From Escherichia coli (GTDB taxonomy: Bacteria > Pseudomonadota > Gammaproteobacteria > Enterobacterales > Enterobacteriaceae): a stretch of DNA of 64,000 nucleotides. Position numbers and translations under genes: made by a program. Position 1 is the first letter of the stretch; the number at the start of each line of letters is the position of its first letter. The notes beneath the pieces are model-generated. The model was not told the DNA's origin, did not search any database, and saw only the letters and a list, made by a program, of their open reading frames with translations. Positions 17,465 through 17,500 of this stretch are shown one piece after another. The DNA lies in assembly GCF_001677475.2 (NCBI RefSeq), contig NZ_CP015229.1. One strand, written 5' to 3'.

Positions 17465-17500
17465 CAGTGGGTACCGTTTTAAAACGGTGGGTACTGTTTT
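17465..17500. promoter_or_regulatory. two 16-bp direct repeats (CAGTGGGTACCGTTTT / CGGTGGGTACTGTTTT) upstream of alpA
   Basis: 20-bp periodicity, embedded palindrome ACCGTTTTAAAACGGT. Confidence 0.4.

Follow-up and report, generated by a model that had tools for sequence, protein, structure and literature searches.

The alpA control region and its tandem element

The window analysed here is a stretch of 64,000 nucleotides from Escherichia coli (contig NZ_CP015229.1 of assembly GCF_001677475.2), and the subject of this work is a tandem element of two 20-bp units at 17461-17500, upstream of the gene alpA. The window carries an 11.0-kb island inserted at tRNA-Pro(GGG) (15540-15616). The left copy of its 17-bp att core repeat (CTCTCGTGCCGACCAAA; 15602-15618, plus strand) is the 3' end of tRNA-Pro, and the right copy lies at 26597-26613. 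The integrase gene int (15807-17066) is followed by ORF76 (17165-17395, plus strand), which encodes a conserved protein of 76 amino acids, and by the intrinsic terminator T1 (17400-17432, plus strand; a 10-bp stem followed by T7, -14.3 kcal/mol), which ends the int-ORF76 transcript. Beyond the tandem element lies alpA (17566-17772, plus strand), whose product of 68 amino acids belongs to PF05930. With int at att, flanking repeats, alpA, a primase gene and capsid and packaging genes, co-oriented, the island is by its gene content a Gram-negative phage-inducible chromosomal island (PICI); its induction by helper phages is assumed by analogy with EcCICFT073 and EcCIMP1. The same island type is annotated at the same site in RefSeq E. 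coli genomes. Such islands are of wider interest as carriers of capsid and packaging genes and of PerC-type virulence regulators, and 441 of 5426 complete E. coli genomes (~8%) match the alpA region.

The first-pass annotation of this DNA had described two direct repeats offset by 20 bp, with an embedded perfect palindrome, about 65 bp upstream of alpA. Direct reading of the sequence confirmed both the repeats, CAGTGGGTACCGTTTT at 17465-17480 and CGGTGGGTACTGTTTT at 17485-17500, and their position, since the GTG start codon of alpA is at 17566, 65 bp past the repeat. These 16-bp repeats are real, but the repeat is longer and its informative anatomy is different. A repeat search showed that 17461-17500 consists of AAAACAGTGGGTACCGTTTT followed by AAAACGGTGGGTACTGTTTT, two contiguous head-to-tail 20-mers with 18 of 20 positions identical, and that 17460-17501 is an imperfect inverted repeat of 21/21 nt. 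Each 20-mer is itself an inverted repeat of the form AAAACNGT-N4-ACNGTTTT. Unit 1 (17461-17480) reads AAAACAGT-GGGT-ACCGTTTT and unit 2, the promoter-proximal one (17481-17500), reads AAAACGGT-GGGT-ACTGTTTT. Their centres are 20 bp apart and hence on the same face of the helix. Within each half-site an A4 tract is followed by CNGT. The palindrome is present as well (ACCGTTTTAAAACGGT, perfect, 16 bp, 17473-17488). However, a tandemly repeated unit with self-complementary ends produces this junction palindrome automatically, so it is a geometric by-product that carries no independent information and is no separate feature.

When the 64-kb window was searched for AAAACNGT-N4-ACNGTTTT with up to two mismatches, three matches were found against 0.25 expected, and none of 100 shuffled sequences reached three. 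The two adjacent units are the only perfect matches among them. 17461-17500 is probably a pair of adjacent dyad operators, in kind an ordinary promoter-proximal operator.

Downstream of unit 2, an 18-bp spacer (17501-17518) of constant length leads to a proximal block. The hexamer TACCGT (17519-17524, plus strand) is kept in all E. coli and Escherichia albertii relatives, and its distance from unit 2 is 18 nt in both E. coli lineages of the island family. It could serve as a weak -10 element (TAnnnT), in which case transcription would start near 17531 and the unit centres would lie at -40.5 and -60.5. A sigma-70 scan of the region found no consensus promoter, which fits a regulator-dependent promoter. 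Just 5' of the alpA ribosome-binding site, two direct repeats in 10-bp phase (CACCGGAATA and CGCCGGATTA, 17531-17550, plus strand) form candidate AlpA sites. The alpA control region thus appears to split into two separable elements, the lineage-specific dyad pair at 17461-17500 and the conserved AlpA-type repeats at 17531-17550.

In EcCICFT073, AlpA acts as an activator of its own promoter, and helper phages induce a plasmid-borne alpA promoter in island-free cells (PMC6092414). An alpA reporter in an alpA deletion mutant of EcCIMP1 is still induced by the helper, at a lower level (PMC11773190). Together these data indicate that two inputs act on the alpA promoter, one being induction that depends on the helper and the other autoactivation by AlpA. 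For Gram-negative PICIs no master repressor has been described (PMC6092414, PMC11773190), and our literature search found no paper that maps the cis-elements of the alpA promoter or names the inducer. For a promoter that answers both helper and AlpA, the tandem pair would provide a defined cis-element and ORF76 a testable candidate regulator.

Conservation of the element and its possible RNA structure

We compared the window with a second E. coli lineage of the island family, in which AlpA is 65-76% and ORF76 65-73% identical to the window's proteins. Synonymous divergence (dS) between the two lineages is ~1 for alpA and 1.9-2.7 for ORF76. As silent sites are saturated, unconstrained sequence is expected to be randomised. 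The tandem block is nevertheless 88% identical and its 28 half-site positions are 96% identical, while a second conserved block (17516-17549) is 91% identical. Both non-coding blocks exceed the alpA coding sequence (69-75%). The two spacers, including the 18-bp one downstream of unit 2, and the ORF76 3' end with T1 are only 43-57% identical, with ~45% as the overall figure for the flanks. The half-sites of unit 1 are kept in the lineage of 78% identity. Among 12 distinct variants of the element, the central 4 nt of the units vary freely (GGGT, GAGT, GGAT, GTAT, TATA, TCTA, GGGA, TGGT) and the N positions vary too; the remaining unit positions are fixed. Some variants turn unit 1 into a perfect 18-bp palindrome (AAACGGTTATAACCGTTT).

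The downstream block was also used as an anchor independent of the motif and retrieved 52 islands from IMG/VR. Both units are intact in 48 of these. In two more (L212/L215) the left half of unit 1 carries one mismatch, and the other two (L213/L214) have a single unit. The missing one is unit 1, so that the natural copy number is one to two units. The half-sites of unit 2 are unaltered in 53 of 53 IMG/VR islands, 52 of them obtained through the motif-independent anchor. Dyad symmetry, fixed half-sites and a free centre across diverged relatives form the pattern of an operator for a dimeric regulator, from which we infer protein binding.

Conservation of an inverted repeat could also reflect RNA or DNA structure. 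In that case the element would act as one more intrinsic terminator, working in both directions, or as an insulator hairpin, and would protect alpA against read-through from int-ORF76 and against antisense transcription. As RNA, the 42-nt region forms a single hairpin whose energy is -16.6 kcal/mol for the plus strand (z = -2.6; ending in U5) and -16.0 kcal/mol for the minus strand (z = -3.5; ending in U6). The inner hairpin was flagged by a terminator scan, and isolated AAAACGGT-N4-ACCGTTTT units in unrelated viral contigs resemble terminators. When the variants were read as the long hairpin, 95% of cells were paired and one pair was altered on both sides in four related variants; however, 12 of 17 pairs are invariant despite the saturated silent sites, and the degenerate N positions produce A-C, U-C, U-U and G-A mismatches. 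Read as two small hairpins, the units show zero covariation and N-position mismatches of the A-C, U-C and G-A types. A 2x2 internal loop interrupts the AU-rich stem, whose U-run pairs with the 5' A-run. A strong canonical terminator, T1, already lies 30 bp upstream, and other PICI lineages have at the equivalent position direct repeats that are unable to form hairpins. Between the lineages T1 kept its hairpin but exchanged its sequence, whereas the tandem block kept its sequence, which favours a protein site over an RNA hairpin. Consistently, a test for selection on structure rather than sequence came out against structure at the tandem block, and T1 showed the opposite pattern. Rfam returned no known RNA family apart from tRNA. 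We take the hairpin reading seriously, but in view of the evolutionary pattern regard it as improbable.

The periodicity of the element raises another possibility. The units might be bound by a nucleoid or architectural protein of the host, or they might be bent DNA with phased A-tracts that serves as an upstream promoter element. Over 17460-17501, A4 and T4 tracts return at 10-bp intervals, and the motif is unchanged whatever the variable gene content of the island. Against this, the non-A/T positions of the half-site CNGT (C, G and T) are conserved as strongly as the A-tracts, and the element is confined to one PICI lineage, with related islands in the same host species using other repeats. 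The 20-mers also do not, in our reading, fit the consensus sites of IHF, Fis, CRP or LexA. A host factor or bent DNA is accordingly the explanation to which we give the least credence. Taken with the conservation data, and whichever protein binds, 17461-17500 is in our judgement likely a sequence-specific protein-binding regulatory site.

Candidate binding proteins

AlpA itself could bind the 20-mers as its own autoregulatory sites. Autoactivation of the alpA promoter is known from EcCICFT073 and EcCIMP1 (PMC6092414, PMC11773190), AlpA is constant across the motif-bearing islands, and excisionase-type winged-helix proteins can bind repeats 20 bp apart, as lambda Xis does at X1 and X2. The CCGGAWT repeats in 10-bp phase (17533-17549, within 17531-17550), however, suit AlpA better. 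Related CCGRAWW repeats, also in 10-bp phase, occupy the attL arm (15626-15736, plus strand; CCGGAAA at 15626, CCGAATA at 15636, CCGAACA at 15700, CCGGATT at 15710 and 15730). A YCGGWW pair is kept upstream of alpA in Edwardsiella, Pectobacterium, Pantoea, Erwinia, Brenneria and other Escherichia, and AlpA in those genera is 65-71% identical with a common recognition-helix pattern, (L/F)Q(D/E/S)MINAG. In E. coli 3PT and E. albertii (L006/L017), the AlpA helix reads LTEM(I/V)NKG, and YCGTT-type sequences stand in for the CCGG sites at all three places (close to the core, within the arm and at the promoter of alpA); the arm-type sites that flank them and the terminator of the tRNA are still conserved there. 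Since CCGGAWT covaries with the AlpA helix and occurs in both att arm and promoter, we assign AlpA to these repeats and not to the 20-mers. The CCGGAWT repeats are probably its sites as both excision factor and autoregulator. The AAAACNGT/ACNGTTTT motif, by comparison, is not found in the attL arm, whereas CCGGAWT is present at attL and promoter alike; same-helix AlpA proteins in Pectobacterium, Pantoea, Edwardsiella and others come without 20-mers; and dyad symmetry is uncommon for monomeric excisionase-type proteins. Binding of the repeats by AlpA, which the first-pass annotation had raised, is thus quite unlikely.

Further repeats were noted around these sites. Some islands (L005, L031) have three CACCGGAATA repeats through a 10-bp duplication. 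In EcCICFT073 (L027), int is followed by six AACAAC repeats in 10-bp phase, alpA is preceded by three GACACAAC repeats (3177-3241, 3428-3470), and the same ACAACGTGAAACAAG motif is inverted in its attL region (1820-1860); the AACAAC/GACACAAC repeats are probably the sites of its own AlpA. In the window, four copies of TTAGTTATACG, two direct and two inverted, form candidate integrase arm-type sites just upstream of int and next to the CCGG repeats of attL (15739-15792), with two related copies in the attR arm (26513-26535). The attR arm has two copies of ATAACGG at a distance of 20 bp (26455-26481), out of just four on the plus strand of the whole window. The attR pair is kept in a related locus (L001) and resembles the half-site AAAACGGT, so the protein that binds the tandem units could act at attR too.

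To narrow down the binder, gene content was compared across 51 motif-bearing islands examined in full. Three proteins are constant, namely Int (88-100% identical), ORF76 (65-100%) and AlpA (65-100%). YlcI/YnfO is absent or 42-100% identical, the primase or replicase is of at least four types (D5_N type, DUF927, RepA helicase and P4-type primase), and the Nu1-like, capsid, decoration and PerC proteins are variable. YlcI/YnfO, a ribbon-helix-helix protein of 59 amino acids encoded on the minus strand (18231-18055), is the repressor-like protein that had been put forward together with AlpA. Its distribution excludes it, as an identical copy is present in EcCICFT073, which lacks the motif, and it is absent or divergent in many motif-bearing islands. 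The units were also considered as replication iterons for the primase or replicase and rejected, the motif being unchanged across the replicase types. A second AlpA-like protein of 127 amino acids (23732-24115), encoded between the decoration-protein and Nu1-like genes, is found in just 8 of the 51 islands and was likewise rejected. The earlier view of the repeats as a binding-site array therefore holds in part: the comparative data favour an element in the alpA control region that binds protein and is constrained in sequence, but neither of the two proteins proposed is a likely binder. As Int (TTAGTTATACG) and AlpA (CCGGAWT) have candidate sites of their own, ORF76 is the sole constant island protein left over. 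Relatives without ORF76 (L006, L017 and other genera) are also without the 20-mer motif.

ORF76 is a real, constrained gene, with a ratio of nonsynonymous to synonymous divergence (dN/dS) of 0.08-0.11. An AlphaFold2 model (confidence score pLDDT 80) comprises helices at residues 4-22, 36-45 and 50-60 and a disordered basic tail, in which the motif GGRPxKW (GGRPKKW in ORF76) is invariant in the family. A profile search showed that ORF76 is the stand-alone form of the C-terminal domain of proteins of 170-370 amino acids in 565 clusters, with the consensus FWSTYDPxDxxTAPxKxxVxxxLxxxGxSxxxAEAxDxILRPxxLxxGGR. hhalign links ORF76 to a 242-amino-acid protein of this kind from another locus (L013; E = 4e-4). 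In six of seven contexts looked up, genes with this domain lie between the integrase gene and an AlpA-type gene or primase gene. The domain (proteins P0017-P0161) is unnamed in Pfam, NCBIfam and PHROGs. Across its lineages, the shared motifs GTGGGTA (in four) and ACCGTTT (in five) were not significant after multiple testing. A protein of 90 amino acids recorded as 'AlpA family, Cooperia oncophora' (P0014; a nematode) is an ORF76-AlpA deletion fusion in which the whole intergenic control region is deleted; it is presumably E. coli contamination of the nematode assembly.

We propose, tentatively, a model in which ORF76, the best of the candidate binders, binds the 20-mers as a repressor. A dimeric sequence-specific protein would occupy 17461-17500 as two dimers. 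The source of ORF76 would be the int-ORF76 transcript, which stops at T1. The invariant GGRPKK tail of the protein would contact the half-site A-tract in the minor groove, and its helix-turn-helix-like bundle would contact CNGT. The Hin recombinase combines a GRP-type arm in the minor groove of an A-tract with a helix-turn-helix in the adjacent major groove, and by this analogy ORF76 may read its half-site with tail and helix bundle. Positioned over the -35 region, ORF76 would silence alpA until a helper-phage product removed or inactivated it. AlpA levels would then climb, and AlpA would act back on the promoter of its gene and bring about excision via the attL sites. As a complete scheme, we judge this model possible but short of probable.

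Several points weigh against it. The position of the promoter is itself inferred from TACCGT. Because ORF76 and the motif are tightly linked (65 bp apart) and have a common descent within one E. coli lineage, their co-occurrence is confounded. ORF76 matches no DNA-binding family in Pfam, NCBIfam, PHROGs or PDB sequences, Foldseek gave nothing significant, and fold searches returned generic three-helix and winged-helix similarity alone. The 42 nt do fold at -16.6 kcal/mol, with one two-sided pair change in four related variants. PICIs without an ORF76-like gene, such as EcCICFT073, remain helper-inducible; induction of the EcCICFT073 alpA-region plasmid in an island-free strain indicates that a satellite-encoded repressor is not the general mechanism.

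The same induction data suit a different binder, an activator encoded by the helper phage. The satellite would copy a regulatory site of its helper, as P4 does with P2 Ogr sites, and dimers near -40.5 and -60.5 would recruit RNA polymerase to a promoter without a -35 element. In EcCICFT073 and EcCIMP1, helpers switch on the alpA promoter without AlpA or other island genes (PMC6092414, PMC11773190). The sigma-70 scan found no consensus promoter, the spacing to TACCGT is constant, and the inferred positions suit class II and class I activators. Other PICI lineages, some without an ORF76-like gene, have lineage-specific repeats at the same place. Against an activator of this kind, a BLAST search of 50,697 phage records, which relied on exact or high-similarity matching and was not exhaustive, found chance-level short matches and no motif copy. 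In IMG/VR, AAAACGGT-N4-ACCGTTTT had 23 matches, about the estimated chance number, all in unrelated low-GC contigs, and the matches listed for AAAACNGT-N4-ACNGTTTT, which are not exhaustive, were mostly in unrelated low-GC metagenome contigs. A scan of IMG/VR for the tandem pattern recovered 49 contigs. alpA lies directly downstream in 48 by the motif check and in the 49th (L049) by tblastn, so all belong to this island family. Finally, the motif is constant while the late genes differ (lambda-like E, D and Nu1 at 100%, 83% or 55% identity, or absent), which argues against tuning to one helper. We consider a helper-encoded activator unlikely, though it is the main rival of the ORF76 model. The remainder of the probability goes to other explanations.

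The ORF76 model can be extended further. ORF76 might be the missing master repressor and helper sensor of these islands, the founding characterised member of the 565-cluster domain family, with helpers inducing by anti-repression. We hold this extension to be doubtful. If true, these satellites would be induced by anti-repression like staphylococcal islands, and not by activation.

The rest of the island lies downstream of alpA. It includes genes for DUF4222 (19114-19413), a D5-type primase (19410-21215; matches to D5_N, Pox_D5 and DUF5906), SSB (21745-22044), the lambda-type capsid protein E (22242-23369) and decoration protein D (23379-23720), a Nu1-like small terminase (24305-24859) and PerC (25681-26052). 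The captured genes (E, D and Nu1-like) point to lambda-like helpers for this island family. An open reading frame of 287 amino acids follows alpA (17777-18640), of which the last ~45 residues alone match an Icd-like family (residues 238-281, its C-terminal end). The YlcI gene lies antisense within it, and minus-strand terminator-like hairpins are found inside it (17954-17929 and 17831-17804); it is probably not one single gene. The YlcI/YnfO protein is 100% identical to the EcCICFT073 copy (L027 4463-4642) and the int and alpA modules are unrelated, a comparison that we read as module shuffling in the zone downstream of alpA. AT-rich hairpins right after the primase gene (21256-21433), with weak spurious miRNA matches in Rfam, likely mark the island replication origin.

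Comparison with known regulatory systems

The Pseudomonas aeruginosa protein also called AlpA and its AlpA-binding element (ABE) were considered as a model and rejected, the likeness being in name alone. That protein is a much larger, unrelated antiterminator of eight helices (H1-H8) with a 21Q-like fold. It contacts DNA through residues 128-142, its recognition sequence is GGGACG, located between -35 and -10, and it loads onto RNA polymerase. The AlpA of the island is a 68-residue PF05930 winged helix.

AlpA (PF05930) falls in the same excisionase-type winged-helix class as lambda Xis, and no sequence similarity between the two was detectable. The Xis sites X1 and X2 are T-rich repeats (TATGTTGTGTTTT and TATGTAGTCTGTT) spaced at exactly 20 bp, and in this spacing they resemble the tandem units. 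They differ in being direct repeats without a dyad, located in an att arm, whereas the element described here is a dyad, is separated from the att core by 1.9 kb and does not occur in attL. For TorI of KplE1 and Vis of P4, excision-factor sites double as operators of integrase or regulator promoters. Here that likeness belongs to the CCGGAWT repeats at 17531-17550 and in attL, and not to the 20-mers.

The P4 late promoters PLL and Psid are transactivated by P2 Ogr or P4 Delta through TGT-N12-ACA near -55. They share with the present region a satellite promoter upstream of an alpA/vis homologue, a poor -35 element and switching by the helper. Direct reading of 17430-17530 found no TGT-N12-ACA of the Ogr/Delta type.

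The lambda operators OR1/OR2 and the Stl operators of staphylococcal pathogenicity islands (SaPIs) offer a parallel in architecture. The 20-bp unit with its A4/T4-flanked CNGT half-site is not known to resemble any described operator, and the candidate regulator also differs, because ORF76 is co-oriented with alpA, not divergent, and has no recognisable Cro/CI-type helix-turn-helix. What is alike is the arrangement of neighbouring dyads with conserved half-sites and a free centre, overlapping or next to the -35 region of the promoter of a lytic master gene. In the proposed model the likeness would extend to a regulator gene adjoining its operator and to a helper product that relieves repression.

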